Sequence record: OM632671.1
DNA: 64,000 bases
Strand: one strand, 5' to 3'
Source: Escherichia phage BEU50
Position numbers and translations under genes: made by a program. Within the stretch, counting starts at the first letter, position 1. The number at the start of each line of letters is the position of its first letter. Positions 7,188 to 28,073 of the stretch are shown here, piece after piece. The notes below the pieces were generated by a model. That model was given only the letters and a program-made list of their open reading frames with translations. It searched no databases and was not told the origin of the DNA.

Positions 7188-7189
7188 CT

Positions 7190-7708: not shown

Positions 7709-7715
7709 GGTAAGC

Positions 7716-9458: not shown

Positions 9459-9628
9459 ATAGTTTTGAGTTACAATATGAAGTGTTACGTGAGCTTGATA
9501 ATTTAATTGAACTCGCTGTCAATAAAGGTTTTGCCATTGGAATCGGTCAAAAAGATACTGGTCATTTAACTATGGAAATATTTAAGCAAAAGCGAATTAT
9601 TTTAAAACTCCTGGAAATTAATATATGA
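9455..9628 (+). CDS. hypothetical small protein
   Basis: 57 aa, ATGA overlap with upstream stop. Confidence 0.3.
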   Translation: MNSFELQYEVLRELDNLIELAVNKGFAIGIGQKDTGHLTMEIFKQKRIILKLLEINI

Positions 9629-9819
9629 GTCTGAGTAAAGAATAAAAAGATAAATTGTTTGAGCTTATCCATGAACTTCTAGATGAGCATGCAGAAGCAA
9701 ACACCTTTTATGATGAATACGGCCCGCTATCTCCCGAACAGCAAGAAGAATTTGCTGATCGGTTTGATAAGAAAGAAAACGAATTAATAGCTTATGTGAA
9801 TATGCTTTAAGAAGGTGAT

Positions 9820-10401: not shown

Positions 10402-10443
10402 TGCAAAAGTTATAAATAGGTTTATCTAACTAAAGGGGTATAT

Positions 10444-10656
10444 ATGCTACAATTAACTGAAAAGCAACTTCGCAATCTTACTGTTCTTCAATTAGATGAA
10501 ATTCGTAGGGAAGTTGGAAATATCATTTCAGCTTTGCGTCGAGAAGTATCACTCAACCAATCTCCGGCAGACTATACTAGATTGCGAAATTTTGAAAAAT
10601 ACCTTGATAAAGTTAAGGCCGTGCATCGGCATAAAGTAAATACAGGACAAAAATGA
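10444..10656 (+). CDS. hypothetical small protein
   Basis: 70 aa ORF in tk-nrdC region. Confidence 0.45.
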
Positions 10657-10668
10657 TAGGAGGCCTTT

Positions 10669-10962
10669 ATGGCCTTAAAAGCAACGGCACTATTTGCCAT
10701 GCTAGGATTAGCGTTTGCTTTATCTCCATCGATTGAAGCGAATGTCGATCCTCATTTTGATAAATTTATGGAATCTGGTATTAGACACGTTTATATGCTT
10801 TTTGAAAATAAAAGCGTAGAATCATCTGAACAGTTCTATAGTTTTATGCGAACGACTTATAAAAATGACCCGTGCTCTTCTGATTTTGAATGTATAGAGC
10901 GAGGCGCGGAGATGGCACAATCATACGCTAGAATTATGAACATTAAATTGGAGACTGAATGA
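10669..10962 (+). CDS. hypothetical secreted small protein
   Basis: 97 aa, RBS AGGAGG, N-terminal signal peptide. Confidence 0.5.
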   Translation: MALKATALFAMLGLAFALSPSIEANVDPHFDKFMESGIRHVYMLFENKSVESSEQFYSFMRTTYKNDPCSSDFECIERGAEMAQSYARIMNIKLETE

Positions 10963-11345
10963 AATTCAGCGACTTTTCACAAAGTGGAAAACCTTCAAAG
11001 GCAGATGAATACTTAGGTTTATTAATGGCTGCACAAGCTTATTTTCATTCTGCGCATTTTGAAACTAAAAGTTATGCTAGACACAAAGCATACGATTTTA
11101 TTTTCTCCGAGTTGCCAGATTTGATTGATAAATTTGGTGAGCAATATTTGGGGTATTCTGGTAGAAAATACACACCTTCAATTCCAGATGCTAGTAAACT
11201 TCCTACCGACACAATTAAAATGATTGATCGCATACTAGACCAATCTAACAGCATTTATAAAGAAATGCCTCCAGCCATTCAAAGCACGATAGATGATATC
11301 ACTGGGATGTTTTATCAGAGTAAATATCTTCTTTCCCTCGAATAA
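10959..11345 (+). CDS. hypothetical protein
   Basis: 128 aa ORF, overlapping start with upstream stop. Confidence 0.5.
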
Positions 11346-11350
11346 CGTTA

Positions 11351-11372
11351 GTCTCCTTCGGGAGACTTTTTT
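11351..11372 (+). terminator. rho-independent terminator GTCTCC-TTCG-GGAGAC plus T6
   Basis: perfect hairpin followed by TTTTTT. Confidence 0.7.
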
Positions 11373-11382
11373 CATTTTACCG

Positions 11383-11412
11383 GTTTACTTTCCATTTGAG
11401 CTGTGATACTAT
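11383..11412 (+). promoter_or_regulatory. T4-type early promoter
   Basis: GTTTAC, about 18 nt, TACTAT. Confidence 0.55.
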
Positions 11413-11440
11413 ACAACCATCGGATAAAGAGGAGAACATC

Positions 11441-11629
11441 ATGAAAATTGAAGCACTTAATCAAGAAGGAAATATCTACGTCATCATTAATGGTGATTTT
11501 TTCGTCGACATGGATGAAGTTACCAGTGAAGAACTTGTAGAACTTCTTAAGAAACGTTATAATATGTGTGATGAAGTTGCAACTCACATGGCGTGTGCAA
11601 TATTCTCTCTTTCATATGTGGTGGAATAA
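11441..11629 (+). CDS. hypothetical small protein
   Basis: 62 aa from ATG 11441 with RBS AAGAGGAG. Confidence 0.45.
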
Positions 11630-11645
11630 TGAAAACTGAAAAGCA
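11620..11645 (+). repeat. 26 nt direct repeat copy 1 (GGTGGAATAATGAAAACTGAAAAGCA)
   Basis: identical 26-mer spanning stop/RBS/start; second copy at 12010. Confidence 0.8.
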
Positions 11646-11832
11646 AGCGGATAAAATTAAGGAATTAGTGGCTTCAATTCGTAAAGCAGATGAAGAGCTG
11701 ATTGACTTTGCTTGGTATTCATCGGGTATTTCGAATAAAGGCATTAAAGACTTTGAAACTAAAGTTGATAATGCTTTAGAAGCGTTAGATATGTTTCTTG
11801 ATGAAATTATCGATCATAATACGAGAGTTTAA
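11629..11832 (+). CDS. hypothetical small protein (MKTEKQ start)
   Basis: 67 aa from ATG inside the 26 nt repeat. Confidence 0.45.
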   Translation: MKTEKQADKIKELVASIRKADEELIDFAWYSSGISNKGIKDFETKVDNALEALDMFLDEIIDHNTRV

Positions 11833-11834
11833 GT

Positions 11835-12029
11835 ATGCTAACACGTGAACAGTTTGAAAAAATCATTAAATTAGCACGTGATGTTGAAATAGATTCATAT
11901 CAATTAGCAGTTGAGCATTGTGAAGGATATTCATACGATGGTATAGAATCAGCTAAAAGGGATTTGGATAAATCTAAAGCTAAGTTAGTCCAATATCTTG
12001 AAATGATTAGGTGGAATAATGAAAACTGA
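11835..12029 (+). CDS. hypothetical small protein
   Basis: 64 aa ORF. Confidence 0.45.
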   Translation: MLTREQFEKIIKLARDVEIDSYQLAVEHCEGYSYDGIESAKRDLDKSKAKLVQYLEMIRWNNEN

Positions 12030-12035
12030 AAAGCA
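12010..12035 (+). repeat. 26 nt direct repeat copy 2
   Basis: identical to 11620-11645. Confidence 0.8.
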
Positions 12036-12192
12036 GATGTTTTTAATGAAACTAATTGAAGAATATGCTAATGCAGTTTCTGACTATGAGCGTTCTTCTC
12101 GGGAAAGAGGTACAGCTTTCGCCAAAGAAGAAATGAAAATCATGGTTGATGCTCACACAAAGCTTCAGAATTTTATTGAAAACAACATTTAA
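12019..12192 (+). CDS. hypothetical small protein (MKTEKQ start)
   Basis: 57 aa from ATG inside repeat copy 2. Confidence 0.35.
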   Translation: MKTEKQMFLMKLIEEYANAVSDYERSSRERGTAFAKEEMKIMVDAHTKLQNFIENNI

Positions 12193-12194
12193 CG

Positions 12195-12224
12195 GTTTAC
12201 AAGTTGGCAAGGTTATGGTATAGT
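12195..12224 (+). promoter_or_regulatory. T4-type early promoter
   Basis: GTTTAC, 18 nt, TATAGT. Confidence 0.55.
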
Positions 12225-12359
12225 AATCTTGTCAACTGTCAAGGAGAAGAGAATGAAAGTTTTGTTTGTTGTGTATGTAATGATTCAATATAATTACCCA
12301 ATGTTTACTTATAATCTGGTGAACAACATTATTGATATTATTCAAAGGAGTATGTAATT

Positions 12360-12590
12360 GTGAGTGAGTCGAAGAGAATCAATATGAAACGATTAGTATT
12401 AGAAGTTAGTCCGCTTTTTGGTGAATTGGCTATAGAAAAAGTAAATAACATGTATCGTTTGACGCAAGAAGACGATATGCTATATTTTACGCCTAGTGAA
12501 ATCATTCATTTAACCCAAATTGAATATCCTTATACTGATAAAATAGTAAGTATCAATGATGAGCACAAAATTCATTGCTCGTTTGATTGA
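12360..12590 (+). CDS. hypothetical small protein
   Basis: 76 aa; GTG start 8 nt after AAGGAG (alternative ATG at 12384). Confidence 0.4.
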   Translation: MSESKRINMKRLVLEVSPLFGELAIEKVNNMYRLTQEDDMLYFTPSEIIHLTQIEYPYTDKIVSINDEHKIHCSFD

Positions 12591-12680
12591 AGTTGAAGCC
12601 CAAATTGCAGAACACACCAAATTGTTAAAAGCTCTTAATGCAAAAGCAAATGGTTTACGTAATGCTATTGAGGTATTGAA

Positions 12681-12995
12681 ATGAAAAAGCGTCTATTAGA
12701 AGACATTGCAGCTTCAAGTAATTCCAGTTTAATTAAAATTATTATGGCCGGTGAAGAAGACGATCTGGAAATGCGTGGAAAGATTTATGGTTGTGATGAT
12801 TATAGCAGCCCTATTAATTGGGATTCTGTAATGGTCATGGTTGAACGTCGCGAAAGGGCTTCTAAAAACGTTCCTAATTGCCCTGAATGTGGAACTGAAC
12901 AGGTGCAATTAGTCCATTGGCAGACTAATAATCTTCGTTATAAATGTCGCCATTGTAAACACCGATTTGACCGAGAAGAAAATGACAAAGCGTAA
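12681..12995 (+). CDS. hypothetical zinc-ribbon protein
   Basis: 104 aa; CPECG…CRHCKH. Confidence 0.5.
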
Positions 12996-13224
12996 AGAAT
13001 ATATGGAGACCGCCGAAAAGGCAGTCCGTGAATTAGCAATAGCTTATTATAATGAACACGGTAAATTTCCTGATAGATACAGCGTGCTTAAATCTGCTTT
13101 AACTCGTTCATATAAAAATATGCTATCAGAAGTAAGTGATATTATATACAAACATAAAGAACAAACGGGCCAAAGTCTTGATTACGACGAGACTTTTAAA
13201 CAAGTACTAGGAATTAAGGAATAA
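12982..13224 (+). CDS. hypothetical small protein
   Basis: 80 aa from ATG 12982. Confidence 0.45.
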
Positions 13225-13225
13225 T

Positions 13226-13489
13226 ATGTTTAAAGTATATGGTTATGATAGCAACATCCATAAATGTGTGTATTGCGATAATGCAAAACGTCTTTTGACC
13301 GTGAAGAAACAGCCGTTTGAATTTATCAACATTATGCCGGAAAAAGGTGTTTTTGATGATGAGAAAATCGCTGAGCTTCTGACTAAACTAGGTCGTGATA
13401 CTCAAATCGGCTTAACAATGCCTCAGGTATTTGCTCCTGATGGAAGTCATATTGGTGGATTTGACCAATTGCGGGAATACTTTAAATGA
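13226..13489 (+). CDS. nrdC: glutaredoxin/thioredoxin NrdC
   Basis: 87 aa; CVYC active site. Confidence 0.85.
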   Translation: MFKVYGYDSNIHKCVYCDNAKRLLTVKKQPFEFINIMPEKGVFDDEKIAELLTKLGRDTQIGLTMPQVFAPDGSHIGGFDQLREYFK

Positions 13490-13701
13490 TTCTCGAAGGA
13501 ACTGATTATATCCATGATTACCGCGGAAGCGCGGTATATGTAGGTGATGAAGTTGCAGTTTACTACGGGTATGGAACTTTGATGACAGCCAAGGTTATTC
13601 AAATTAAAAATAATCGTGCTAAACTCGAAGTTTATTATTCTAACGGCGAAAAGTCTATTTCTAAGTGGAAATACGGCGATTGTATGGTCAAACTGGGGTA
13701 A
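13486..13701 (+). CDS. hypothetical small protein
   Basis: 71 aa, ATGA overlap with nrdC stop. Confidence 0.45.
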   Translation: MILEGTDYIHDYRGSAVYVGDEVAVYYGYGTLMTAKVIQIKNNRAKLEVYYSNGEKSISKWKYGDCMVKLG

Positions 13702-13703
13702 AT

Positions 13704-13874
13704 ATGATTTACGATATTAGTGCAGCAAGAGCTCCATCAATGGTTGCTATTCCAGCTGAAGAATTAGATCGTCTTCATAAAATTGAAGAACTTCTGTGGG
13801 AAATTGAATCTGATTTGCCATCAGGATTAGAATCCTGGATTGATTATGAAGAACTTAATAAGCTTCGGGGTTAA
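13704..13874 (+). CDS. hypothetical small protein
   Basis: 56 aa from first ATG of the 13665 ORF. Confidence 0.3.
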   Translation: MIYDISAARAPSMVAIPAEELDRLHKIEELLWEIESDLPSGLESWIDYEELNKLRG

Positions 13875-13996
13875 ACCCTGGTGGGCGGCTAGATGGGAAA
13901 CTGTAGAGCCAGAGCCGGAAGAACCGGTTTACACTGATGAAGAAACAGTATATAATGAACCAACGATAAATGACTTAATTGATATGGAGATGGGAC

Positions 13997-14482
13997 ATGA
14001 TTACAGTAGATAAGTGGTTTAGAATTAATCGTGTTGATACAGGGCTATGTAATTACTGGCCGGAACTTAGTGCAGGTACTGTCTTTAAAGTTCGTGAACT
14101 TGCAAAAGAATGTGAAGATGATATAGAACCTGATACTGGAATTATTGAAATTGAACTTTCTGATGGAAAGATTATTAACATCTATGATAAGCCAATTACG
14201 TATTGGTGCTTGTGGAATACTGAATCCGTTGAAAATGGCGAAATTGAAGAAGTTGTAGAGAGAACTAGCCAAGATGCTCAGAAGCCTAAAGCCGCTTTTC
14301 AAGGTGAACGTATTTCATACGCATTAGCTAAATTAGCTGCACAAGAAAATAACGATGGTTATGAAGGAAATTTAATGCAAGCTGCCGCAGAGTACATTGA
14401 ATGGCTTGAAACTCAAATTTCTTTTTCTGACCAAATGATTCGGCAATATAAGCGATTGCATCAAATGTTTTACAATACTTGA
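13997..14482 (+). CDS. pin: Pin-like protein (protease inhibitor position)
   Basis: 161 aa from ATG 13997 with RBS GGAGA; length and position match T4 pin. Confidence 0.55.
   Translation: MITVDKWFRINRVDTGLCNYWPELSAGTVFKVRELAKECEDDIEPDTGIIEIELSDGKIINIYDKPITYWCLWNTESVENGEIEEVVERTSQDAQKPKAAFQGERISYALAKLAAQENNDGYEGNLMQAAAEYIEWLETQISFSDQMIRQYKRLHQMFYNT
14408..14482 (+). repeat. direct repeat copy A (3-prime end of pin)
   Basis: two sub-blocks (26 nt and 48 nt) recur at 14483-14510 and 14648-14695. Confidence 0.75.
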
Positions 14483-14695
14483 AAAAACTCAAAATTCTTT
14501 TTCTGACAAGGCATTTTAATGAAAACCGAATTGGTTTATACTGAAAAGTTAAATGGCGGTAAGGTTTGGAAACTTTTTATTAAAGGACATTCTACGGACC
14601 CTCATATGACCACTTGCGTAGGAACCTATTCTCGTCCTACTAAAAAGATGATTCGACAGTATAAACGATTGCATCGAATGTTTTACAATACTTAA
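14483..14695 (+). repeat. direct repeat copy B flanking a 58-codon ORF
   Basis: AAAAACTCAAAATTCTTTTTCTGACA at 14483 and ATGATTCG…TACAATACTTAA at 14648. Confidence 0.75.
14519..14695 (+). CDS. hypothetical small protein sharing Pin C-terminal 15 aa
   Basis: 58 aa ending MIRQYKRLHRMFYNT, the same tail as the pin ORF. Confidence 0.4.
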   Translation: MKTELVYTEKLNGGKVWKLFIKGHSTDPHMTTCVGTYSRPTKKMIRQYKRLHRMFYNT

Positions 14696-14704
14696 ATAAT
14701 AAAT

Positions 14705-14735
14705 ACCCTTATCTATTTAAGGTAAGGGTTTTATT
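14705..14735 (+). terminator. hairpin plus T-run before gene 49
   Basis: ACCCTTA … TAAGGGT stem followed by TTTTATT. Confidence 0.5.
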
Positions 14736-15209
14736 ATGTTATTGACTGGCAAATTATACAAAGAAGAAAAACAAAAATTTTATAATGTACAAAACGGTAA
14801 ATGCTTAATTTGCCAACGAGAACTAAATCCTGATGTTCAAGCTAATCACCTTGACCATGACCATGAATTAAATGGACCAAAAGCAGGAAAGGTACGTGGA
14901 TTGCTTTGTAATCTCTGCAATGCTGCAGAAGGTCAAATGAAGCACAAATTTAATCGTTCTGGCTTAAAGGGTCAAGGTGTTGATTATCTTGAATGGTTAG
15001 AAAATTTACTTACTTATTTAAAATCCGATTACACCCAAAATAATATTCACCCTAACTTTGTTGGAGATAAATCAAAGGAATTTTCTCGTTTAGGAAAAGA
15101 GGAAATGATGGCCGAGATGCTTCAAAGTGGATTTGAATATAATGAATCTGACACCAAAACACAATTAATAGCTTCATTTAAGAAGCAGCTTAGAAAGAGT
15201 TTAAAATGA
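14736..15209 (+). CDS. 49: endonuclease VII (Holliday junction resolvase)
   Basis: 157 aa; CLICQ…CNLC zinc site plus HLDHDHE. Confidence 0.85.
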   Translation: MLLTGKLYKEEKQKFYNVQNGKCLICQRELNPDVQANHLDHDHELNGPKAGKVRGLLCNLCNAAEGQMKHKFNRSGLKGQGVDYLEWLENLLTYLKSDYTQNNIHPNFVGDKSKEFSRLGKEEMMAEMLQSGFEYNESDTKTQLIASFKKQLRKSLK

Positions 15210-16027
15210 ATGTAGTATATAAACTATCATTTATTAATAGAATTAATGCTAAAACCCCACCATATTATTACATTGGAAGTAAAACCAATTGCACTTTTGA
15301 TGGAACGAATATTATTGATAAAAATGGTAAATTTTATTATTCGTCTTCGTCATCTTCTGAATTTCAAAAAGCCTTATTGAAAGAAACGCCGAAAGTTGAA
15401 ATATTATATTTTCAATTAGTCGGAGATGAACAAATAACTAGCATTGAAGCTGAATTTCAAAAGAATATAGAAAAAGATGTATGGAATAAAGAGTATTTTA
15501 ATTTAGCATATGCTGATGGCAAATTTACGACATATGGTATTTCTCCTTCTAAAGAAACTAGAGAAAAGCAATCAATAACCATGATTAAAAGAAATCGTAA
15601 TAAAGGCAAAAATCATGGATTTTATGGAAAGCATCATACTAATTTAGCTAGAAAGAAAATATCAGAAGCTTCTAAAAAATACTGGAAAGAAAATCCACAT
15701 CGTGGATTTTCGCATACAAAGGAAGCTAAAATTAAAATTGGAATTTCATCTTCTATCAGGCATAAAGGAAGTGGAAATCCGATGTATGGTGTAAAACCTT
15801 GGAAAACTCCGAGCGCAATTAAATCTGGTACTTGTATATTATGGTTAAAATACGCAGAAATTTTATATGATTATTTAAGTCCAGATTTTAAAAGTAAATC
15901 ATCTATTTTTGCGGATTTAAACTTACCGAAATTTAGAATTGATAATTTCATCAAAAGGTTTAAAATGGGTTGGAACCCATATTTAGACGAAGAATTTCAA
16001 AAGGATAAATTAGAATTATGTCTTTAG
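15206..16027 (+). CDS. GIY-YIG/NUMOD-type homing endonuclease-like protein (seg-like)
   Basis: 273 aa; VVYKLS…YYYIGSK and repeated GxxHT/NPMYG NUMOD-like motifs; inserted between 49 and nrdD. Confidence 0.6.
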   Translation: MNVVYKLSFINRINAKTPPYYYIGSKTNCTFDGTNIIDKNGKFYYSSSSSSEFQKALLKETPKVEILYFQLVGDEQITSIEAEFQKNIEKDVWNKEYFNLAYADGKFTTYGISPSKETREKQSITMIKRNRNKGKNHGFYGKHHTNLARKKISEASKKYWKENPHRGFSHTKEAKIKIGISSSIRHKGSGNPMYGVKPWKTPSAIKSGTCILWLKYAEILYDYLSPDFKSKSSIFADLNLPKFRIDNFIKRFKMGWNPYLDEEFQKDKLELCL

Positions 16028-17016
16028 AAAAAGATGTTTTAAATTTTATTTCAAATAAAGATAAAGAATTAAATACAGAAAACGCCAACAAAGATTCTCG
16101 CGTCTTTCCAACAAAAAGAGATTTAATGGCCGGTATTGTTTCTAAACATATCGCTTGTCGTATTCTTCCAAGTCATATTGTAAATGCCCATAATGTTGGA
16201 TTAATTCATTTTCATGATTTAGATTACAGTATATCATTGCCTTTTACTAATTGCTGTTTAGTAGATTTAAAAGGAATGCTTGAGAACGGGTTTAAGCTCG
16301 GTAATGCACAGATTGAAACTCCTAAATCAATCGGTGTTGCTACTGCAATTATGGCACAAATTACTGCACAGGTTGCTTCTCACCAATATGGCGGAACTAC
16401 ATTTGCTAATGTCGATAAAGTACTTTCTCCTTATGTTAAACGCACCTATGCAAAACATATCGAAGACGCAGAAAAATGGCAAATCGCCGATGCGTTAAAT
16501 TATGCTCAATCTAAAACAGAAAAAGACGTATACGATGCATTCCAAGCTTATGAATATGAAGTAAATACTCTCTTTAGTTCAAACGGACAGACTCCTTTTG
16601 TAACAATTACATTTGGTACAGGAACTGACTGGACTGAACGAATGATTCAGAAAGCAATTCTGAAAAATCGTATTAAAGGTCTTGGTCGTGATGGGATAAC
16701 TCCTATTTTCCCTAAGCTTGTTATGTTTGTTGAAGAAGGTGTTAATCTTTATAAAGACGATCCGAACTATGATATTAAGCAGCTTGCTCTAGAGTGTGCA
16801 AGCAAAAGAATGTATCCTGATATTATTTCAGCTAAGAACAATAAAGCTATCACTGGTTCATCTGTTCCTGTTTCTCCAATGGGTTGCCGTAGTTTCTTGG
16901 GCGTATGGAAAGATTCGACTGGTAATGAAATTCTTGATGGACGTAATAATCTTGGCGTTGTAACACTGAATCTTCCTCGCATCGCGTTAGATTCTTATAT
17001 TGGAACACAGTTCAAT
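16018..17016 (+). pseudogene. nrdD: anaerobic ribonucleotide reductase NrdD, 3-prime truncated (N-terminal ~333 codons only)
   Basis: NrdD-like sequence to …[17 protein letters not shown]; remainder of the ORF to 17103 is reverse complement of gene 37 start; no glycyl-radical C-terminus. Confidence 0.8.
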
Positions 17017-17150
17017 CCTGAGTCATCTTTTGTGAAAATTGTTTTATCTTTTAAGTTTATAGCCAATTCACCTTCGGCTAATACTGAAGCAGCAGGACGT
17101 TGACCTGCAGTTTTGCTTCTTTTAAATTGTATTTGTTTTAAAGTAGCCAT
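16995..17150 (-). pseudogene. 37: long tail fibre distal subunit gene 37, 51-codon N-terminal stub
   Basis: [13 protein letters not shown]…TKDDSG then LNCVPI-stop; gp37-like only to codon 45. Confidence 0.75.
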
Positions 17151-17158
17151 AAGTCCTC

Positions 17159-17809
17159 TTAATAATAGCCGAAATCTTGAACAGAATCCTTAATTACGAT
17201 TTGGTCAAATCGTGGAACGTGTGAAGGTTGAGATGCAGGATTCTGTGAAAAAAGGTTTGGCGCAGTTAAATTTCCTGTCATAGTGTCTCCAGAGCGTAAT
17301 ACCCTAGAGTTTGCATTTGCTGTAACAGTATTTATTGCTCCATCAACATAATCTTTACGAGTAGCATCTGATGCTGCGGAAGGAGTAGATGTAACAGTTA
17401 CAGATGGAGCCGTTACAGCTTTGGTAAATGTTGTCAAACCTTCTGGCGTAATAGTAATTTGTCCAGTAGTGATTTCACTACCTGCTGGTCTAAAACTAAT
17501 ACCGCCAGAAGAGCCACCAACTACAAGAGTATTACCAGTGCCGCCACCAGAACGAATTCGGATGGGGGTTTCATTATTACTTAATTGAAGATAACTATTT
17601 ACACCATAATTAATAGTAACTGGGCCTGTGTAAGTACCACCAGTAGATTTAGAAACGAAATCATTATCAGCTGCCTGTGGTTTATTATATTCTGAATATA
17701 TTTTAAATGATTTGTAGAGTACATCGTCACCGGCTGAATTCAACGGAAAATTTCCTTGATGCCAAATGACAGATCCACCTACAGTTGAACCTCCTTTTAA
17801 ATCAGCCAT
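17159..17809 (-). CDS. 36: long tail fibre subunit gp36
   Basis: 216 aa; N- and C-termini match gp36 as recalled. Confidence 0.9.
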
Positions 17810-17832
17810 AGTATGCCCATTTATTTTAATAT

Positions 17833-17840
17833 TATTTATA
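17833..17840 (-). promoter_or_regulatory. late promoter TATAAATA
   Basis: TATAAATA on minus strand 24 nt upstream of gene 36 ATG. Confidence 0.6.
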
Positions 17841-17842
17841 AA

Positions 17843-17866
17843 GAAAAAAGGAGCCCGGCGGCTCCC
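17843..17866 (-). terminator. hairpin GGAGCC-GCCG-GGCTCC plus T6 (minus strand)
   Basis: between gene 35 stop and gene 36 late promoter. Confidence 0.6.
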
Positions 17867-17871
17867 TCAGT

Positions 17872-18987
17872 TTAAACTTCTCTAAATTCCTGTCCAAACA
17901 CTTTACCAGTTTTAGACGATGCCTGTGTAGGAAGTACCATTATATCTGGAGGTGAAGCCGATTCACAGACATAATTAACGCGAATACCATTGACGCCAAA
18001 TTCGGCAGGTTTTGAAATGCCGCCATTTCTTGATACTTCAGAAAAGCTTAAATTTCTCATACCGCCTTGACCCGCTTGGGCGGTTCTCTGTGTGTATATC
18101 GTAAATCCTACTGCATTTTCAGGAACAACTACATAATCTTCTTTTAATTCCCAAGACCCAGCTTGCCCAGTAAACTCAGCTTGGGTCGAGGAAATATATC
18201 CATTTGATGCATCATAAAAACGAATAGATATATTTGCAGTTCCAAGATCAAGTAAATCAGCATCAGCATATAGTTGTGCTTTAAGATAAAGAACATCACC
18301 AGGAATTAAATTGTAGTCAGAAAGTTTACTTATAGCAGCTGAAGTTGGTAAACGCGCAATTTCATTATTAGTTCCACCAACCGCAGACATAAATTGCTCA
18401 ACGCTTTCGTATGTTCTTTTAGGAAATCCTGTAGCTCCGACGTCTTCTAAACTATCAAATACAACATCTAAAATAGTTTGATAATCATCTGTGCTTTTTC
18501 TATTACTTAGTTTAACATGCTCTAATGCAATAGCTCTTTTAGAAGAAGTATAAAAAGCAGCATATGACACGTCAAATCTTGACAATACTGAATCTGATGG
18601 AAAAACTGAAGTTCCTGCTCCCCTTAACCAAGATACCACTTCAGGAGGAAAATTAACCTTTCCGCTAGTTAATATAGCAACAAGTCTATTGTTTGACAAA
18701 GAATTCATGAAACTGACAAAAGTGGTAGATGTTGTATTGTTTGAAGCAGAAAAAGCATATGACTTACTATCAACTAATGCTCCCGTAGAAGGGTCAAAAA
18801 CTCTTAAATGAAGACCTGCACTAAATGTTTGATTTCCAACGGGATTATCCTGAAATTTAACATATGGTCCCGCAGTAGAAAGCGGGCAAGAACCCGCTAT
18901 GCTTATTTTATATCTTACTGAATTGCTTTCCGATAAAAATGGCGTTTGGACATATCCTTGTCCAAACTCTGCCATAAATTTTTCCAT
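17872..18987 (-). CDS. 35: long tail fibre hinge protein gp35
   Basis: 371 aa; position and length. Confidence 0.85.
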   Translation of the reverse strand: MEKFMAEFGQGYVQTPFLSESNSVRYKISIAGSCPLSTAGPYVKFQDNPVGNQTFSAGLHLRVFDPSTGALVDSKSYAFSASNNTTSTTFVSFMNSLSNNRLVAILTSGKVNFPPEVVSWLRGAGTSVFPSDSVLSRFDVSYAAFYTSSKRAIALEHVKLSNRKSTDDYQTILDVVFDSLEDVGATGFPKRTYESVEQFMSAVGGTNNEIARLPTSAAISKLSDYNLIPGDVLYLKAQLYADADLLDLGTANISIRFYDASNGYISSTQAEFTGQAGSWELKEDYVVVPENAVGFTIYTQRTAQAGQGGMRNLSFSEVSRNGGISKPAEFGVNGIRVNYVCESASPPDIMVLPTQASSKTGKVFGQEFREV

Positions 18988-18995
18988 AATACCTC

Positions 18996-21900
18996 TTATT
19001 CAACCCATTCAAATTTAACAGTTTTATTCACTGGGTCAGGAATAATGCGAACATTACCAATTCGTAAGAAATCACGAATAGTAAGATTACCTATTATTCC
19101 ATTATCAGATGGGATTGCTCCTATATCCGAAGGTTGAGGAGGATTACCTCCATCGAATACCTGAACAAAACTTGACCAAGAGTTTTTGGTTTTCTGCCAT
19201 GTACGTGTCCAGCGAGTGGTACGTGCTTCTGGGGTCGTTGGATAAGTAATCCAATCTTGGTAAAGTGAATCAAGTGTGTTACCAAACTGAGTCAATGTAC
19301 CAGGAGATTTAACTTCTTCACCGCGTTCTAAATATGGAAGTCCAGTCACTTCATTAGTTTTTTCAACCATTTTAAAATAACCCGGGAACTGGTTATAAGT
19401 GGCTGAATCATTAATATCGATTGACCAGAATCCTACAGTATCAGATGTTGGCGCACGGGTATATAAATCAGATGTTTTAACACCTTGAGAACGAATTCTC
19501 GAGTTAACAGTTAAACCGCCTGAACTTATAGTAGCACCTTTTGCAATGATTAAGCTTTCACCAATCGTTACTTGGCCAGATGCATTATTAATAGATAAAG
19601 GACGTAATCCATTAAATCCGCCAGTTTGATCACCCGATGCAGTAAGCATAAAATTCGTTACTGACCCATCATTGCGAACAATGAAACCATAATTTCCGTT
19701 AATAGCACGGAAAGCATTTGCGCTTCGAGAAATAATTTCACCAGTTGCAGTGACTGAATTACCAAATGTTGCTACACCATTTGCATTCAATGTTCCTGAA
19801 GCATTAACATTTATCGGTGTTACTGTACCGTTGATATTAAATGTTATATTTCCAGCTTTATTACGCTGAGAATAAAAATGACTAGACGTTTCATCACTAA
19901 CTTCAAATACGGTAGAACGTGTTGTGTCTGATTCCCCACTAAATTGATTTCCCCACACTCTGACTGTCATCGTTTGAGCCGGGTTTGTTCCAGTTTGAGG
20001 TCCTTTCTCAAAAATCAATCGAGTTGCCGTTCCAGTATTAGAAATAGTTAATGTACTATTTGCTGAAACTGATCCACCGAATGTAGCAGTACTAGATGAT
20101 ACAAGAGGGGCACTCAGATTCGTTTGTTGGGTTAAGGTTAGTGAACCATTAACTGTTTGTGCAATGTCCCTACGAATGAACTGGAGCGAATCTAGACCAT
20201 CTAATAAATTACTATCTACAGCTTTTGCTTTTAATGGCAAATAATTTGCTAATACGCGATTTAATTCATATGGTGATACTGCATAACCATTTTTCTCATA
20301 TGATTCTAATGGTTGTGTTGAACCTACCGTATCATTACCAACGAATGTAATTGAACCAGATGAAGTTTTAACAAACCCTCTTATCAGAGTAGTTGCTGCC
20401 CAAGTTGGTTCACTCTGCACAATCCATTTTAAATTTTTTGGAGATACAGCAGTATTTGCTGATGTTCCAGTCACAGTTTCAGACTGAGTTGCAACTTTAA
20501 TAACACCTTCCTGTGCTTCAGTAGATTTAGTACCTAAAAGCTTTTTAGGAGTTATTAAAACATTATCTAATGTTCCTGCAGCAGCTTCAACTTGTGTAGC
20601 TACACGAAGTGTACCACGCTGTGTCTCATTTGCTTCAAGAATATTAAGTGTATAATGGTCCCAGAGAGTTCCTGATTCAACTAATCCAGATAGAGCAACA
20701 ACAGAAGTACGATCAGTACTATTAAATCTAGTTTTAATTTTTAATGGTGTAGAGATGCGAGTATCGTCGACGCCTGCGTCGAATTCAACTTGCGTAGCAA
20801 TTTCAGCTATACCACTTAAACTTTCAGTTGCTCTACGGTCATTTAAAGTTTTAGGAGTGACTGCACGAGTATAGTCAGTTCCTGTGTTAACTTCACTTTG
20901 CGTAGCAATTTCAATTAAACCAATTCTTCCATCAGTTGATGTCTTTTTATGTAACGTTTCTGGCGTTACAACCGCATTTGCCCATCCTTCTTGGCTTTGT
21001 CCAGCAATTACTTCACTTTCAACTGCTAAAATTACTGCGCCTTGTTGCGTTGGAGTAGCTTTATACTGATCCAAAGCTTTAGGTGAAACAACTAAATTAT
21101 TAGTGTTTTTATTATAAACATTCGTACCATTTAATTCACGGCTAGAAGCTGGAGTAGCTCCTGCAGTAGATACATAAGTTACAATACCAGATAATGATTC
21201 AGAACCTTGGCGAGCTTGAAGCTTTTTAGGAGTGATGATTGTAGTATCATCAGTACCTGTATTAGTTTCCTGCTGCGTAGCAATTTCAGCGACACCTCTA
21301 CGAGTTTCTGTAGCAGTTCTTTCATTCAGCTTTTTAGGAGTGATGATAAGGTCATCTGCAAAAGAGAATGTGGTGTTCTGATTCACTTGAGCAGTAGTTG
21401 CTATTCTTGCAATACCTCTGCGAGTTTCTGTAGCAGTACGATTAGCTAACGTTTCTGGAGTAATTGCTAATTCTTTTTGTGGAGAATTTTCTAAATCAGC
21501 ATTTGCTTGAGCTTGCGTAGCTAAAGCAATTACGCCTAATCTTGCTCTAGTAGAAGCATTTAAAGAGTCTACTCTTTCTACAGTTGGAACGTTTTGCTGT
21601 ACAACCCAGCATTTTCCATCAGAATCTTCTATATAAGCAAGTTGTAAAACTGGAACATAATTAGTTTCACCGTTAAAAACTAATTCTTGAACTGTTACCC
21701 ATTCAGCTTCAGGCGGATATTCTGAACGTTTTGGGAATTGCAGCAATTGAACTGAGGAAGCAATTTTATCTTCACCTGCAGCTTTGATTTTAACTGTTTG
21801 TCCTTTTCTCATGTAATTCATGGAAATTTTAACAGTATCACCAACAGAAATATCAGTCGGAAGCTGAAGTTCAATTGTTTGGGTTGTTCCATTATTCGCG

Positions 21901-22865
21901 CCAAATACCATGACTTCTTCATTTGGACGAATATTAGAATTAGTTGTTATAATGCGTAAACGTGCTTTACTATCCCCGTCAAACAATCTCCACAATTTCT
22001 CATTATCATCAAACATCAAGAAACCGTCAATCGATGTACGGCCTTCAATGGAATGAGTTCCAACTTCTTGCACTGACGTTGTTTCATCATATGTCGTAAC
22101 AATTGTATGATAAAGTGGATTTAATTTATCTAAATCAACGAAATTAATGATATCTCCATGATTGGCAAATCTTGGAAGCTTAACATTAATCGGCGCGGCA
22201 GAAGTAAATCTACGTACGATAAAATCATTAGATTGTGCTTGATATGCAGTCGATGGAGTAACAATCGCAGCTTCTCTGCTATAATCAGCAATATACATTT
22301 GCCACAAACGATTATTAAAAATGAATACCATCTGTGACTTTGGATGAGTCATTAAAACTGAACGTACCTGTTCACCTCTAAAATTGACAATACTCTGATT
22401 TGAAGAATTTATTTTAACCTGATTTATGCCAGGTTTTCCACCGATATCTTGAATTATTACGGTTTCTCCATCAAGCGGAGAAGGTGGTAAAGTAAACTCA
22501 ATGTCATTGCCAACTGATGTATCTACTGAAATTGCTTCTCCGGATTTTAATTGATATGGTCCAGATGATACGGTTGTATATACAGCATCAGTACGTAATG
22601 CTTTCCAACGAATTCTATTAAAATTTCCAGCAGGTTTTGGAATATTATCCGTTGCTGCCCAAAAACGATTATTATAAATGATTACAAAATCTTTTAAATA
22701 TCCACGAGTTGGATCATATTGCTGAACTGTGTTTTCTTGAATTAAGTAATCAACGTTAACACCGTCAGTTCCTACGGTACGATCAGCTAAAGCTACGTTG
22801 ATTATTTTATCGCCACCTGCGTCCAGACCATCTTCTGCTCTGAACTTTCTTTTAATCTCGGCCAT
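18996..22865 (-). CDS. 34: long tail fibre proximal subunit gp34
   Basis: 1289 aa with internal repeats; divergent from rnh. Confidence 0.9.
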   Translation of the reverse strand: MAEIKRKFRAEDGLDAGGDKIINVALADRTVGTDGVNVDYLIQENTVQQYDPTRGYLKDFVIIYNNRFWAATDNIPKPAGNFNRIRWKALRTDAVYTTVSSGPYQLKSGEAISVDTSVGNDIEFTLPPSPLDGETVIIQDIGGKPGINQVKINSSNQSIVNFRGEQVRSVLMTHPKSQMVFIFNNRLWQMYIADYSREAAIVTPSTAYQAQSNDFIVRRFTSAAPINVKLPRFANHGDIINFVDLDKLNPLYHTIVTTYDETTSVQEVGTHSIEGRTSIDGFLMFDDNEKLWRLFDGDSKARLRIITTNSNIRPNEEVMVFGANNGTTQTIELQLPTDISVGDTVKISMNYMRKGQTVKIKAAGEDKIASSVQLLQFPKRSEYPPEAEWVTVQELVFNGETNYVPVLQLAYIEDSDGKCWVVQQNVPTVERVDSLNASTRARLGVIALATQAQANADLENSPQKELAITPETLANRTATETRRGIARIATTAQVNQNTTFSFADDLIITPKKLNERTATETRRGVAEIATQQETNTGTDDTTIITPKKLQARQGSESLSGIVTYVSTAGATPASSRELNGTNVYNKNTNNLVVSPKALDQYKATPTQQGAVILAVESEVIAGQSQEGWANAVVTPETLHKKTSTDGRIGLIEIATQSEVNTGTDYTRAVTPKTLNDRRATESLSGIAEIATQVEFDAGVDDTRISTPLKIKTRFNSTDRTSVVALSGLVESGTLWDHYTLNILEANETQRGTLRVATQVEAAAGTLDNVLITPKKLLGTKSTEAQEGVIKVATQSETVTGTSANTAVSPKNLKWIVQSEPTWAATTLIRGFVKTSSGSITFVGNDTVGSTQPLESYEKNGYAVSPYELNRVLANYLPLKAKAVDSNLLDGLDSLQFIRRDIAQTVNGSLTLTQQTNLSAPLVSSSTATFGGSVSANSTLTISNTGTATRLIFEKGPQTGTNPAQTMTVRVWGNQFSGESDTTRSTVFEVSDETSSHFYSQRNKAGNITFNINGTVTPINVNASGTLNANGVATFGNSVTATGEIISRSANAFRAINGNYGFIVRNDGSVTNFMLTASGDQTGGFNGLRPLSINNASGQVTIGESLIIAKGATISSGGLTVNSRIRSQGVKTSDLYTRAPTSDTVGFWSIDINDSATYNQFPGYFKMVEKTNEVTGLPYLERGEEVKSPGTLTQFGNTLDSLYQDWITYPTTPEARTTRWTRTWQKTKNSWSSFVQVFDGGNPPQPSDIGAIPSDNGIIGNLTIRDFLRIGNVRIIPDPVNKTVKFEWVE

Positions 22866-22899
22866 TCTCCCGGGCTCCTATTGTGTTTTCAATAATAAG

Positions 22900-22907
22900 T
22901 ATTTATA
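22900..22907 (-). promoter_or_regulatory. late promoter TATAAATA
   Basis: 35 nt upstream of gene 34 ATG on minus strand. Confidence 0.65.
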
Positions 22908-22910
22908 CTT

Positions 22911-22940
22911 GTTTACTTTAAGATTTAGATAGTATATAAT
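22911..22940 (+). promoter_or_regulatory. T4-type early promoter
   Basis: GTTTAC, 18 nt, TATAAT upstream of rnh; -10 flanked by AGATTT/AAATCT dyad. Confidence 0.65.
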
Positions 22941-22969
22941 AGAAATCTCACTAATTGAACGAGGTTCAT

Positions 22970-23887
22970 ATGGATTTAGAAATGATGTTGGATGAAGATT
23001 ACAAAGAAGGAATTTGCTTAATTGACTTTAGTCAGATTGCGCTTTCAACTGCTCTGGTAAACTTCCCAGATAAAGAAAAAATTAATTTATCAATGGTTCG
23101 TCATTTGATATTGAACTCAATTAAGTTTAATGTCAAAAAAGCAAAAACGCTTGGATACACTAAAATTGTGCTGTGTATTGATAACGCGAAATCTGGATAC
23201 TGGCGTCGTGATTTTGCTTATTATTATAAGAAAAACCGTGGAAAAGCACGAGAAGAATCTACTTGGGACTGGGAAGGTTATTTTGAATCCAGCCATAAAG
23301 TTATAGATGAATTGAAAGCTTATATGCCATACATTGTTATGGATATTGATAAGTATGAAGCAGATGACCACATTGCTGTTCTTGTTAAAAAGTTCTCTTT
23401 AGAAGGACATAAGATTTTAATCATTTCATCGGATGGTGACTTTACACAGCTTCACAAATATCCAAATGTTAAGCAATGGTCACCGATGCATAAGAAATGG
23501 GTTAAAATTAAAAGCGGTTCTGCTGAAATTGACTGTATGACTAAAATCCTTAAAGGCGACAAAAAGGATAACGTTGCTTCAGTTAAAGTACGATCTGACT
23601 TTTGGTTTACCAAAGTTGAAGGTGAACGGACTCCTTCAATGAAAACTTCAATCGTTGAAGCTATTGCTAATGATCGTGAGCAAGCTAAGGTGCTTCTCAC
23701 AGAATCTGAATATAATCGTTATAAAGAAAATTTAGTTCTAATTGATTTTGATTATATTCCTGATAATATTGCTTCAAACATTGTGAATTACTATAATTCA
23801 TATAAATTACCACCGCGTGGCAAAATTTATTCATATTTTGTAAAAGCGGGTCTTTCTAAATTAACTAATAGCATTAATGAATTTTGA
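22970..23887 (+). CDS. rnh: RNase H / 5-prime-3-prime exonuclease (FEN family)
   Basis: 305 aa from ATG 22970 (MDLEMML…) with RBS GAGG. Confidence 0.9.
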   Translation: MDLEMMLDEDYKEGICLIDFSQIALSTALVNFPDKEKINLSMVRHLILNSIKFNVKKAKTLGYTKIVLCIDNAKSGYWRRDFAYYYKKNRGKAREESTWDWEGYFESSHKVIDELKAYMPYIVMDIDKYEADDHIAVLVKKFSLEGHKILIISSDGDFTQLHKYPNVKQWSPMHKKWVKIKSGSAEIDCMTKILKGDKKDNVASVKVRSDFWFTKVEGERTPSMKTSIVEAIANDREQAKVLLTESEYNRYKENLVLIDFDYIPDNIASNIVNYYNSYKLPPRGKIYSYFVKAGLSKLTNSINEF

Positions 23888-23895
23888 GGTGAATA

Positions 23896-24165
23896 ATGGC
23901 TAAAAAAGAAATGGTTGAATTTGATGAAGCTATCCATGGCGAAGACTTGGCTAAATTTATTAAAGAAGCATCTGATCATAAACTGAAAATTTCCGGTTAT
24001 AATGAACTGATTAAAGATATTCGAATTCGTGCTAAAGATGAACTTGGCGTTGATGGTAAGATGTTTAATCGTCTATTAGCTTTGTATCATAAAGATAACC
24101 GTGATGTGTTTGAAGCTGAAACTGAAGAGGTAGTTGAACTTTATGACACAGTTTTCTCTAAATGA
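23896..24165 (+). CDS. dsbA: dsDNA-binding protein DsbA
   Basis: 89 aa, position between rnh and 33. Confidence 0.8.
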   Translation: MAKKEMVEFDEAIHGEDLAKFIKEASDHKLKISGYNELIKDIRIRAKDELGVDGKMFNRLLALYHKDNRDVFEAETEEVVELYDTVFSK

Positions 24166-24481
24166 CATTCGTCCGGTCGATGAGACCGGTCTTTCAGAAA
24201 AAGAACTTTCAATTAAGAAAGAAAAGGATGAAATAGCAAAGCTTCTTGATCGTCAAGAAAATGGATTTATTATTGAAAAAATGGTAGAAGAGTTTGGAAT
24301 GAGTTATCTTGAAGCTACAACAGCATTCTTAGAAGAAAATTCTATTCCTGAAACTCAATTTGCTAAATTTATTCCTTCGGGTATAATTGAAAAAATTCAG
24401 TCAGAAGCTATTGACGAAAATCTTTTACGTCCTTCTGTTGTTCGTTGTGAAAAAACTAATACATTAGATTTTCTACTATGA
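24143..24481 (+). CDS. 33: late transcription accessory protein gp33
   Basis: 112 aa from ATG 24143 (MTQFSLNDI…). Confidence 0.85.
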   Translation: MTQFSLNDIRPVDETGLSEKELSIKKEKDEIAKLLDRQENGFIIEKMVEEFGMSYLEATTAFLEENSIPETQFAKFIPSGIIEKIQSEAIDENLLRPSVVRCEKTNTLDFLL

Positions 24482-24537
24482 TTAAACTCCGCATGCCTGC
24501 TGGTGGTGAAAGATACATTGATGGTAAATCAGTTTAG
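24478..24537 (+). pseudogene. 59: helicase loader gene 59, 19-codon N-terminal stub
   Basis: [19 protein letters not shown] then TAG; downstream sequence is not gene 59. Confidence 0.6.
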
Positions 24538-24620
24538 TGAGTATTTTGATAATAAAATTTCTACAGTTAAAACTTCTTCTGATTGTTACTATGATATTAC
24601 TGTTTTGACGGAAAAACAAT

Positions 24621-24947
24621 ATGTTGAATTATCACCGCGCGGGCCGTCTATGCCGGGTAGTGAATAAATATAAATCCGACTTTGATGTTAATATTCACCG
24701 TGGTACATTTTGGGGAAATTACGTCGGTAAAGATGCTGGCAGCCGGGAGGCTGCCATTGAATTATTCAAAAAAGATTTTATACGTCGAATTAAATCCGGA
24801 GAAATAACTAAAGCACATTTAGAGCCTTTACGTGGAATGAGGCTAGGATGCACATGTAAACCAAAGCCGTGTCATGGTGATATAATAGCTCATATAGTTA
24901 ACCGACTGTTTAAAGACGATTTTCAAGTTGAGGACTTATGCAATTAA
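24621..24947 (+). CDS. hypothetical protein with C-terminal C-x-C…CHGD motif
   Basis: 108 aa ORF upstream of nrdA; GC-rich 5-prime patch; true start uncertain. Confidence 0.45.
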
Positions 24948-27202
24948 TTAATGTTATCAAAAGTAGTGGTGTTTCTCAGAGCTTTGACCCGCAAAAAATT
25001 ATTAAAGTTTTATCTTGGGCAGCTGAAGGAACATCAGTAGATCCTTATGAATTATATGAAAATATTAAATCTTATCTCCGTGATGGAATGACAACTGATG
25101 ATATTCAGACTATTGTCATTAAGGCCGCTGCGAATTCTATTTCGGTTGAAGAGCCTGATTATCAATATGTAGCTGCACGCTGTTTAATGTTCGCTCTTCG
25201 TAAGCATGTTTATGGGCAGTATGAACCACGTTCATTTATTGACCATATTTCTTACTGCGTAAATGAAGGTAAATATGACCCTGAATTATTGTCAAAATAT
25301 TCAGCAGAAGAAATTACATTTTTAGAATCAAAAATTAAGCACGAGCGGGATATGGAATTTACTTATTCCGGGGCGATGCAATTAAAAGAAAAATATCTAG
25401 TCAAAGATAAAACCACCGGTCAAATTTATGAAACTCCGCAGTTTGCATTTATGACTATTGGAATGGCATTGCATCAAGATGAACCTGTTGATAGACTAAA
25501 ACACGTTATCCGTTTTTATGAAGCAGTATCCACTCGACAGATTTCATTGCCAACTCCTATTATGGCTGGTTGCCGTACTCCGACTCGACAGTTTAGTTCA
25601 TGTGTTGTTATTGAGGCAGGAGATTCATTGAAGTCTATCAATAAGGCTTCTGCTTCAATTGTTGAATATATCTCTAAACGCGCTGGAATTGGTATTAACG
25701 TTGGTATGATTCGTGCCGAAGGTTCTAAGATTGGCATGGGTGAAGTACGCCATACTGGTGTTATTCCTTTTTGGAAACATTTTCAGACTGCAGTTAAATC
25801 ATGTTCACAGGGTGGAATTCGTGGCGGCGCTGCTACTGCTTATTATCCTATTTGGCATTTGGAAGTTGAAAATCTTCTCGTTTTGAAAAATAACAAAGGC
25901 GTAGAAGAAAACCGCATTCGTCATATGGATTATGGTGTTCAACTGAATGATTTGATGATGGAACGTTTTGGAAAGAACGATTACATTACTTTGTTCAGTC
26001 CCCATGAAATGGGTGGAGAGCTTTATTATTCTTATTTTAAAGACCAAGACCGTTTCCGTGAATTATACGAAGCAGCAGAAAAAGACCCTAATATTCGTAA
26101 AAAGCGTATTAAAGCCCGTGAACTATTTGAATTGCTCATGACTGAACGTTCAGGAACAGCAAGGATTTATGTACAGTTCATTGATAATACGAATAACTAT
26201 ACTCCGTTTATTCGTGAAAAGGCACCTATTCGTCAGAGTAACTTGTGCTGTGAAATTGCTATTCCAACAAATGATGTGAATAGTCCTGATGCTGAAATTG
26301 GATTGTGTACTCTCTCTGCATTCGTACTAGATAATTTTGACTGGCAAGACCAAGATAAAATTAATGAATTGGCAGAAGTTCAAGTTCGTGCTCTTGATAA
26401 TCTTTTGGATTACCAAGGATATCCAGTTCCTGAAGCAGAAAAAGCTAAAAAGCGTCGTAACCTTGGCGTAGGTGTTACCAACTATGCAGCTTGGCTGGCA
26501 AGTAACTTTGCTTCTTATGAAGATGCTAACGATTTAACACATGAACTATTTGAGAGATTACAGTATGGACTCATTAAAGCATCCATTAAGCTCGCCAAAG
26601 AAAAAGGACCTTGCGAATATTATTCAGACACTCGTTGGTCTCGAGGCGAATTACCTATCGACTGGTACAATAAAAAGATTGACCAAATCGCAGCTCCAAA
26701 ATACGTTTGTGACTGGTCGTCGCTGCGGGAAGACCTCAAGCTCTTTGGCATCCGTAATAGCACATTATCAGCACTTATGCCATGTGAGTCATCTTCCCAA
26801 GTTTCTAACAGTACAAACGGTATCGAGCCTCCACGTGGACCGGTAAGTGTTAAAGAATCAAAAGAGGGTTCCTTTAATCAAGTCGTGCCCAATATTGAGC
26901 ATAACATAGACCTCTATGATTATACGTGGAAATTAGCTAAGAAAGGTAATAAACCTTATCTTACGCAGGTAGCTATTATGCTGAAATGGGTATGTCAATC
27001 AGCTTCAGCGAATACATACTATGACCCGCAAATTTTTCCAAAAGGAAAGGTTCCAATGTCAATAATGATTGATGACATGCTATATGGATGGTATTATGGC
27101 ATTAAAAATTTCTATTATCATAATACCCGTGATGGTTCTGGTACTGATGATTATGAAATAGAAACTCCAAAAGCTGAAGATTGTTCATCCTGTAAATTAT
27201 GA
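24938..27202 (+). CDS. nrdA: ribonucleotide reductase large subunit
   Basis: 754 aa; N-terminal ATP-cone; class I RNR alpha. Confidence 0.9.
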   Translation: MQLINVIKSSGVSQSFDPQKIIKVLSWAAEGTSVDPYELYENIKSYLRDGMTTDDIQTIVIKAAANSISVEEPDYQYVAARCLMFALRKHVYGQYEPRSFIDHISYCVNEGKYDPELLSKYSAEEITFLESKIKHERDMEFTYSGAMQLKEKYLVKDKTTGQIYETPQFAFMTIGMALHQDEPVDRLKHVIRFYEAVSTRQISLPTPIMAGCRTPTRQFSSCVVIEAGDSLKSINKASASIVEYISKRAGIGINVGMIRAEGSKIGMGEVRHTGVIPFWKHFQTAVKSCSQGGIRGGAATAYYPIWHLEVENLLVLKNNKGVEENRIRHMDYGVQLNDLMMERFGKNDYITLFSPHEMGGELYYSYFKDQDRFRELYEAAEKDPNIRKKRIKARELFELLMTERSGTARIYVQFIDNTNNYTPFIREKAPIRQSNLCCEIAIPTNDVNSPDAEIGLCTLSAFVLDNFDWQDQDKINELAEVQVRALDNLLDYQGYPVPEAEKAKKRRNLGVGVTNYAAWLASNFASYEDANDLTHELFERLQYGLIKASIKLAKEKGPCEYYSDTRWSRGELPIDWYNKKIDQIAAPKYVCDWSSLREDLKLFGIRNSTLSALMPCESSSQVSNSTNGIEPPRGPVSVKESKEGSFNQVVPNIEHNIDLYDYTWKLAKKGNKPYLTQVAIMLKWVCQSASANTYYDPQIFPKGKVPMSIMIDDMLYGWYYGIKNFYYHNTRDGSGTDDYEIETPKAEDCSSCKL

Positions 27203-27253
27203 TATAATTTGACTCATGGACGAGTCACTATCTATTAACTAAGTGGAAAATTT

Positions 27254-27915
27254 ATGAGCACAGTTTTTAATACAAACCCAGTTGATGTTTTAAAAGAACC
27301 TATGTTTTTTGGTTCAGGTCTTGGTATTGCGCGTTATGATATTCAACGCCATAAAGTTTTTGAAGATTTGACCGAAAAGCAATTGTCATTTTTCTGGCGT
27401 CCTGAAGAAGTAAACTTAATGATGGATGCTGCACAGTTTAATAAGCTTCCTCAGTATCAGCAAAATATTTTTACTAATAACCTGAAGTATCAATCACTTT
27501 TGGATAGCATTCAGGGTCGTGCGCCATCTGCTGTACTTATGTCATTAATTTCAGACCCGAGTCTTGATACATGGGTTGCTACATGGACTTTTAGTGAAAC
27601 TATTCACAGCCGTTCATATACACATATCATGCGAAATCTTTATACTGATCCATCGAAGGTATTTGATGAGATTGTATTAGATGAAGCTATTATGAAACGT
27701 GCTGAATCTATCGGTCGCTATTATGATGATGTTCTGATTAAAACCCGTGAATGGGAAAATGCTAAAGAATTTGTAGAACTAGCTAAAGAATCTCCTGATG
27801 CTGTCTTTCGTTTAAACCGAGCTATTAAACAAGAAGCCGAAGCTAAACGTGCTTTAATGAAATCTCTTTACCTCTGTTTGCACGTTATTAATGCCTTAGA
27901 AGCATTCGTTTTTAT
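27254..27915 (+). CDS. nrdB: ribonucleotide reductase small subunit, exon 1 (3-prime boundary approximate)
   Basis: NrdB-like sequence to …LYLCLHVINALEA; frame then runs into intron. Confidence 0.75.
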
Positions 27916-28038
27916 GTATCTTTTGCGTAAAATGCGCCTTTAAACGGTAACGTTTATCGAAAACTCCTTTAATTGCTGGAAAGTCCTTTATAGGAAAACT
28001 AGCAGCCAAGGTTTTGCTTGCACCTTTAATTAGTATAA

Positions 28039-28046
28039 TATAAATA
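28039..28046 (+). promoter_or_regulatory. late promoter TATAAATA inside intron
   Basis: 28 nt upstream of the intron ORF start. Confidence 0.5.
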
Positions 28047-28073
28047 TGGTTATACTTTTAAGAGGATGCACAA

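Follow-up and report, generated by a model that had tools for sequence, protein, structure and literature searches.

The break at positions 24536/24537 of the window (the whole stretch of DNA analyzed, 64,000 nt of OM632671.1) is most likely a mis-join in the sequence record rather than a feature of a replicating phage. We assign this reading a probability of roughly 0.8 and infer that its cause is technical or computational. We favor it because the window is a non-collinear patchwork with four blunt joins, each cutting an open reading frame (ORF); because essential genes are missing and the join occurs in no public record; because six natural contigs keep the full block from gene 33 to nrdA; because the four joins are spaced with a greatest common divisor of 20, which is expected from no biological breakage; and because the join is unlike documented T4 deletions or bred T-even hybrids.

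The join and the genes on either side of it are as follows:

Ending at 23887, plus strand: rnh (ORF list)
23896 to 24165, plus strand: dsbA (ORF list)
24143 to 24481, plus strand: gene 33, late-transcription coactivator, intact (Pfam Trans_coact, E = 5.6e-27; collinear with JB75 20436 to 20774)
24478 to 24537, plus strand: gene 59 remnant, 19 codons from the ATG (24478 to 24534) and a TAG stop (24535 to 24537) (gp59 residues 1 to 19, 100%)
24536 to 24537, no strand: join, blunt, with 0 nt of microhomology (alignment with both parental sites)
24537 to 24667, plus strand: nrdA.2 (DUF5496) remnant, the last 2 nt of codon 45, codons 46 to 87, and TAA (Pfam, tblastn)
24621 to 24947, plus strand: nrdA.1 (DUF4326), intact (Pfam; identical protein in 22 public contigs)
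24938 to 27202, plus strand: nrdA, intact, 754 aa, Tequatrovirus type (ORF list, blastn)

The TGA of gene 33 at 24479 to 24481 overlaps the ATG of gene 59 at 24478 (ATGA). A tblastn search with JB75 proteins matched gp59 residues 1 to 19 at 100% identity over 24478 to 24534 and stopped there, in agreement with an earlier note on this DNA, which held that gene 59 is cut after 19 codons. That note had the frame ending in TAG at 24535; the stop codon is indeed TAG, and 24535 is its first base rather than its end. This TAG spans the join and is a by-product of it (TA/G): the native Tyr20 codon (TAT) contributes TA, and nrdA.2 contributes the G. A full-length gp59 helicase loader (T4_Gp59_N plus T4_Gp59_C, about 217 aa) was not found in the window. 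A tail of 43 codons, shifted to the +1 frame with respect to gene 59, extends from 24536 to 24664 and ends in TAA at 24665 to 24667. The earlier note took this open tail for the 3′ end of a gene whose 5′ part is missing, and the gene proves to be nrdA.2: the tail corresponds to positions 45 to 87 of the 87-position DUF5496 profile (Pfam, E = 5.5e-24), the C-terminal half of NrdA.2, and tblastn with JB75 proteins matched NrdA.2 residues 46 to 87 at 97.6% over 24539 to 24664. Instead of a complete NrdA.2 (DUF5496, 87 aa with its own start), the window thus holds a remnant without a start codon. As the note also stated, nrdA follows within 400 bp, starting at 24938.

Alignment with a T-even reference, which the earlier note had proposed, places the break exactly. 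By blastn against Tequatrovirus JB75, window positions 17017 to 24536 correspond to JB75 13310 to 20829 (97.3%) and positions 24537 to 27926 to JB75 25784 to 29174 (96%), and the same 24536/24537 break was obtained against every reference compared. Matches of this sort are deterministic and do not reflect chance. The absent interval measures 4,954 bp relative to JB75 (20830 to 25783) and 6,017 bp relative to L010 (3900 to 9916), the closest relative found. It holds the rest of gene 59, gene 32, frd.3, frd.2, frd.1, frd, td (whether or not it carries its intron), and the first 133 nt of nrdA.2, so that the 59-32-frd-td block is missing between gene 33 and nrdA, as had been claimed. The suggested search for genes 32 and 59 elsewhere found no homologue in the 64 kb by tblastn. 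L010 is a metagenome scaffold of 215 kb (ENA ERZ28650664, VATT16-1 scaffold_2); it is longer than a T4-type genome (roughly 165 to 170 kb) and may itself be redundant or chimeric. Divergence from L010 is 0.44% in the left flank (17017 to 24536) and 0.31% in the right flank (24537 onward), and since the flanks are about equally diverged, both sides come from one Tequatrovirus lineage. Insertion of a mobile element instead of a deletion was rejected, since on its right side the join is followed by precisely the 3′ half of nrdA.2.

At nucleotide resolution, a three-way alignment (slashes mark the join site) gives ...CAGTTTA/TAAATTAT for the gene 59 parent, ...ATGACTC/GTGAGTAT for the nrdA.2 parent, and ...CAGTTTA/GTGAGTAT for the window. 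The parental sites GTTTA/TAAAT and GACTC/GTGAG, which yield the join GTTTA/GTGAG, have 0 nt in common. Within 100 nt on either side of the join, the longest word in common is an 8-mer with both copies inside the deleted part, and a search for hidden homology or repeats at the join recovered short repeats at chance level only. A promoter and terminator scan of positions 23700 to 25200 revealed no enrichment over shuffled sequences.

In natural relatives the locus is complete. Gene tables were inspected for six natural contigs whose NrdA.1 is identical to that of the window (L008 to L013), and each of them carries the full block, in the order 33-59 (217 aa)-32-frd.3-frd.2-frd.1-frd-td-nrdA.2 (87 aa)-nrdA.1-nrdA. 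The join itself was not reproduced in independent sequences of the lineage: none of the 517 phage records in INPHARED that match the 1.5 kb around 24536 spans it, exact searches of IMG/VR, JGI metagenomes, and GTDB genomes for the 37-nt junction sequence came back empty, and complete E. coli genomes and plasmids gave nothing for the 851-bp junction region. Exact-protein look-ups found gp35, gp49, and one seg-like ORF of the window not to be on record, while look-ups of NrdA.1 and of a NUMOD3-motif ORF (see below) led to natural, intact loci only.

The earlier note implied a phage genome that had lost an essential block. This implication is unsupported, as the join is one of four in a patchwork of Tequatrovirus and Mosigvirus sequence, laid out as follows:

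6156 to 6157, no strand: join; Mosigvirus rIIA breaks off 178 nt short of its end and abuts a Tequatrovirus region about 60 kb away on the map
6157 to 12576, no strand: first Tequatrovirus piece (JB75 104.5 to 111.0 kb), with the regB, vs, tk, and rI region
12576 to 12577, no strand: join, position uncertain by 1 nt, in the middle of an nrdC-region gene; about 9.2 kb of the JB75 map is missing
12577 to 17016, no strand: second Tequatrovirus piece (JB75 120.2 to 125.0 kb), with the nrdC region, gene 49, and the first half of nrdD
17016 to 17017, no strand: join; nrdD is cut at position 293 of 562 of Pfam NRDD and abuts codon 45 of gene 37 on the opposite strand
17017 to 24536, no strand: third Tequatrovirus piece, 7,520 bp (JB75 13310 to 20829, 97.3%)
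24537 to 27804, no strand: fourth Tequatrovirus piece (JB75 25.8 kb onward), with the nrdA.2 remnant, nrdA.1, nrdA, and nrdB exon 1
27805 to 28458, no strand: interval containing the switch from Tequatrovirus to Mosigvirus, within nrdB intron sequence common to both parents

The backbone is Mosigvirus, occupying positions 1 to 6156 and the stretch from about 27800 to 28000 up to 64000. Its left-hand part (gene 39 to the truncated rIIA) is 98.8% identical to Mosigvirus a20, and its right-hand part is a20-like, with 100% identity over kilobases. Between them, the four Tequatrovirus pieces, which lie in one orientation and in ascending map order, take the place of roughly 29 kb of Mosigvirus sequence (a20 72780 to about 44100). 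The native place of the first two, in every T-even genome, is tens of kilobases away, beyond gene 39 and rIIA. The third comprises codons 1 to 45 of gene 37 (minus strand), genes 36, 35, and 34, rnh, dsbA, gene 33, and the gene 59 remnant; it is 98.8% identical to SHFML-26 and shows the 0.44% divergence from L010 given above. The fourth differs from L010 at 10 of 3,268 positions. As a whole, the window is collinear with no T-even genome.

All four joins (6156, 12576, 17016, and 24536) are blunt, with 0 to 1 nt of microhomology, and each cuts an ORF. A look-up among 153 billion gene positions returned no record of the fusion ORF made from rIIA or of its protein. For the join at 12576, an origin in natural variation was rejected even though the nrdC-tk region is variable, as none of 497 matching records spans it. 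By tblastn, the 64 kb contain no gp32, Frd, Td, gp38, holin t, AsiA, MotA, gp52, or RIIB of either parental type, and gene 37 is represented by nothing beyond codon 45. According to the a20 map, the Mosigvirus copies of the missing genes would sit in the replaced interval. The window therefore combines several abrupt, non-collinear, gene-truncating joins with a gene set incompatible with replication. Any other missing or truncated gene noted near 6156, 12576, or 17016 is explained in the same trivial way.

Several other ORFs of the window deserve separate mention. Gene 39 (55 to 1875) consists of one ORF of 606 aa, with 39 and 60 fused as is usual outside T4; the ORF that follows it (1860 to 2672, 270 aa) carries a homing endonuclease annotation in a20. 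A 273-aa ORF with a NUMOD3 motif lies at 15206 to 16027 on the plus strand, between gene 49 and nrdD, and is not in JB75, although an identical protein occurs in 13 natural Tequatrovirus contigs (L015 to L019). Two GIY-YIG seg-like endonuclease ORFs, at 56071 to 56853 (minus strand, between uvsW and inh) and 61730 to 62674 (plus strand, between genes 24 and 23), occupy sequence that a20, the closest Mosigvirus, lacks, and are probably free-standing homing endonuclease insertions.

The positions of the joins follow a regular pattern. Positions 6156, 12576, 17016, and 24536 are all congruent to 16 modulo 20, and the spacings of 6420, 4440, and 7520 bp have a greatest common divisor of 20. Monte Carlo simulations that allowed for 1-nt ambiguities put the probability of such spacing at about 5e-4 when modulus 20 was considered and at about 7e-4 when any one of several round moduli counted, both values applying to a pattern noticed post hoc. 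No biological breakage model predicts this spacing; a computational splice could give it. FASTA line length was dropped as its source, on the ground that 7520 fits no multiple of 60, 70, or 80.

The return to Mosigvirus in the nrdB intron is of another kind. The last Tequatrovirus-type informative site is at 27804 and the first Mosigvirus-type site at 28459, and the two parents are nearly identical across the 27805 to 28458 interval in between. Judged from these sites, the switch is consistent with homologous exchange, though a fifth, artificial blunt join could lie hidden in the near-identical interval. A switch within homology that keeps gene order, as in hybrids made by homologous recombination, was found only here and at none of the joins at 24536, 17016, 12576, and 6156. 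The intron, about 1.09 kb long (about 27927 to 29018), interrupts nrdB (27254 to 29521) and carries an intact, I-TevIII-like HNH endonuclease ORF of 269 aa (28074 to 28883). An Rfam scan of positions 24000 to 29600 returned no family at the gathering threshold and no hit for the nrdB intron.

We considered whether the deletion could be genuine, having occurred in the real DNA of a defective, helper-dependent Tequatrovirus/Mosigvirus hybrid through homology-independent end joining in a mixed infection. Some observations fit such a history: both flanks belong to one Tequatrovirus lineage with about equal divergence from L010, the Tequatrovirus pieces keep a common orientation and an ascending map order, and the right-hand switch to Mosigvirus falls inside a shared intron, as homologous recombination would give. 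Both parental types are also found together in nature, and deletions are compatible with headful packaging (Wu et al. 2021, mBio, PMC8262927). However, a genuine deletion would require illegitimate joining to have happened four times independently within 18 kb, never with the 3 to 13 nt of minihomology seen in T4, together with the loss of eight or more genes, of which several, 32 and 37 included, are essential. Furthermore, none of the collections searched holds a second example, and the 20-bp regularity of the joins is left unexplained. We therefore regard a genuine deletion as unlikely. We give still less credence to its specific form as a packaged, helper-dependent genome in which end joining without homology placed a 21.6-kb Tequatrovirus collage in a Mosigvirus backbone; it is similarly hard to credit that such a genome, lacking genes 32, 37, and 38, t, asiA, and motA, would persist in the manner of a defective interfering particle, in mixed infections only.

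Since the window shows 64 kb of a genome of roughly 165 to 170 kb, genes 59 and 32 might instead have been relocated beyond it in a viable phage. The cuts fall inside genes 59, nrdA.2, 37, nrdD, and rIIA, however, and the moved copies would be truncated too unless they had been duplicated intact. Given also that genes 59 and 32 lie between gene 33 and frd in the six inspected contigs with identical NrdA.1, and that the join is spanned by 0 of 517 matching phage records, relocation is highly improbable. Finally, a naturally short gene 59 in a lineage-specific compact locus, for which nothing speaks beyond the ORF itself and which would have overturned the earlier note, is refuted, since the closest natural genomes, 99.6% identical up to the join, have at this locus a gp59 of 217 aa with both Pfam domains, the stop consists of 2 nt of gene 59 and 1 nt of nrdA.2, and what follows is a truncated nrdA.2.

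We thus return to a mis-join as the best explanation. Two stretches of one Tequatrovirus genome, natively about 5 to 6 kb apart, would have been abutted, so that gene 59 accidentally acquired a TAG behind its codon 19 and the 3′ half of nrdA.2 was left without a start. The source may have been a chimeric assembly of a sample in which a Tequatrovirus and a Mosigvirus were both present; it would also be possible that contigs were strung together with no gap markers between them, or that some other computational splice took place. Some features count against a mis-join. A true deletion, too, would leave two flanks from one Tequatrovirus genome, which is what is seen, and the single orientation and ascending order of the pieces are unexpected from random concatenation of contigs. 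Moreover, De Bruijn chimeras normally arise at shared k-mers, of which there are none at the four joins.

The choice between these readings matters for how the record is used. Gene 32 is essential according to established T4 genetics. Its product has been termed "physiologically essential" (PMC535899). A deletion that was real in a free-living phage would overturn the view that the T4-type single-stranded DNA-binding protein is essential; alternatively, a real deletion would reveal a helper-dependent defective T-even genome. Under a mis-join, the practical value of the finding is in quality control, with the window, and probably the contig that contains it, unfit for inference of gene content, synteny, or essentiality. 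The earlier note's description was confirmed as a description of the sequence.

The join can also be compared with known rearrangements of T-even phages. The classical T4 deletions between genes 63 and 32 (denA-nrdB-nrdA-td-frd) lie in a nonessential region. Like them, the window has lost frd and td, genes that T4 can do without on normal hosts; however, the classical deletions spare gene 32, whereas the gap described here removes gene 32 and nearly all of gene 59 and keeps nrdA and nrdB. T4 topoisomerase can carry out homology-independent illegitimate recombination in vitro, and a blunt join in vivo is hence not impossible. T4 deletions recovered by experiment formed at minihomologies of 3 to 13 nt in a UvsX-dependent manner, and none was recovered when essential genes were targeted; according to the authors, a deletion that took out part of an essential gene would not survive (PMC8262927). 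The join at 24536 is similar to these deletions in that kilobases are lost between two T-even points and the shortened genome would still be packaged by the headful. In contrast to them, it has 0 nt of parental identity rather than 3 to 13 nt with one copy retained, and it removes the essential gene 32 rather than nonessential DNA only.

T-even hybrids bred from mixed infection are collinear mosaics made by homologous recombination (PMC8614997). The window shares with these hybrids, and with exon coconversion around homing introns, the presence of two parental types in one sequence, and the nrdB intron switch at 27805 to 28458 matches the hybrid pattern. Such hybrids keep gene order and switch within homology; the four joins, in contrast, are non-homologous and the order is scrambled. 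With mis-joined contigs from mixed phage samples, on the other hand, the window has in common abrupt switches between parents, truncated genes at the joins, missing essential genes, and joins that occur in no independent record. It departs from graph-based chimeras, which usually form at shared k-mers, and the 20-bp regularity of its joins hints at a different computational step.
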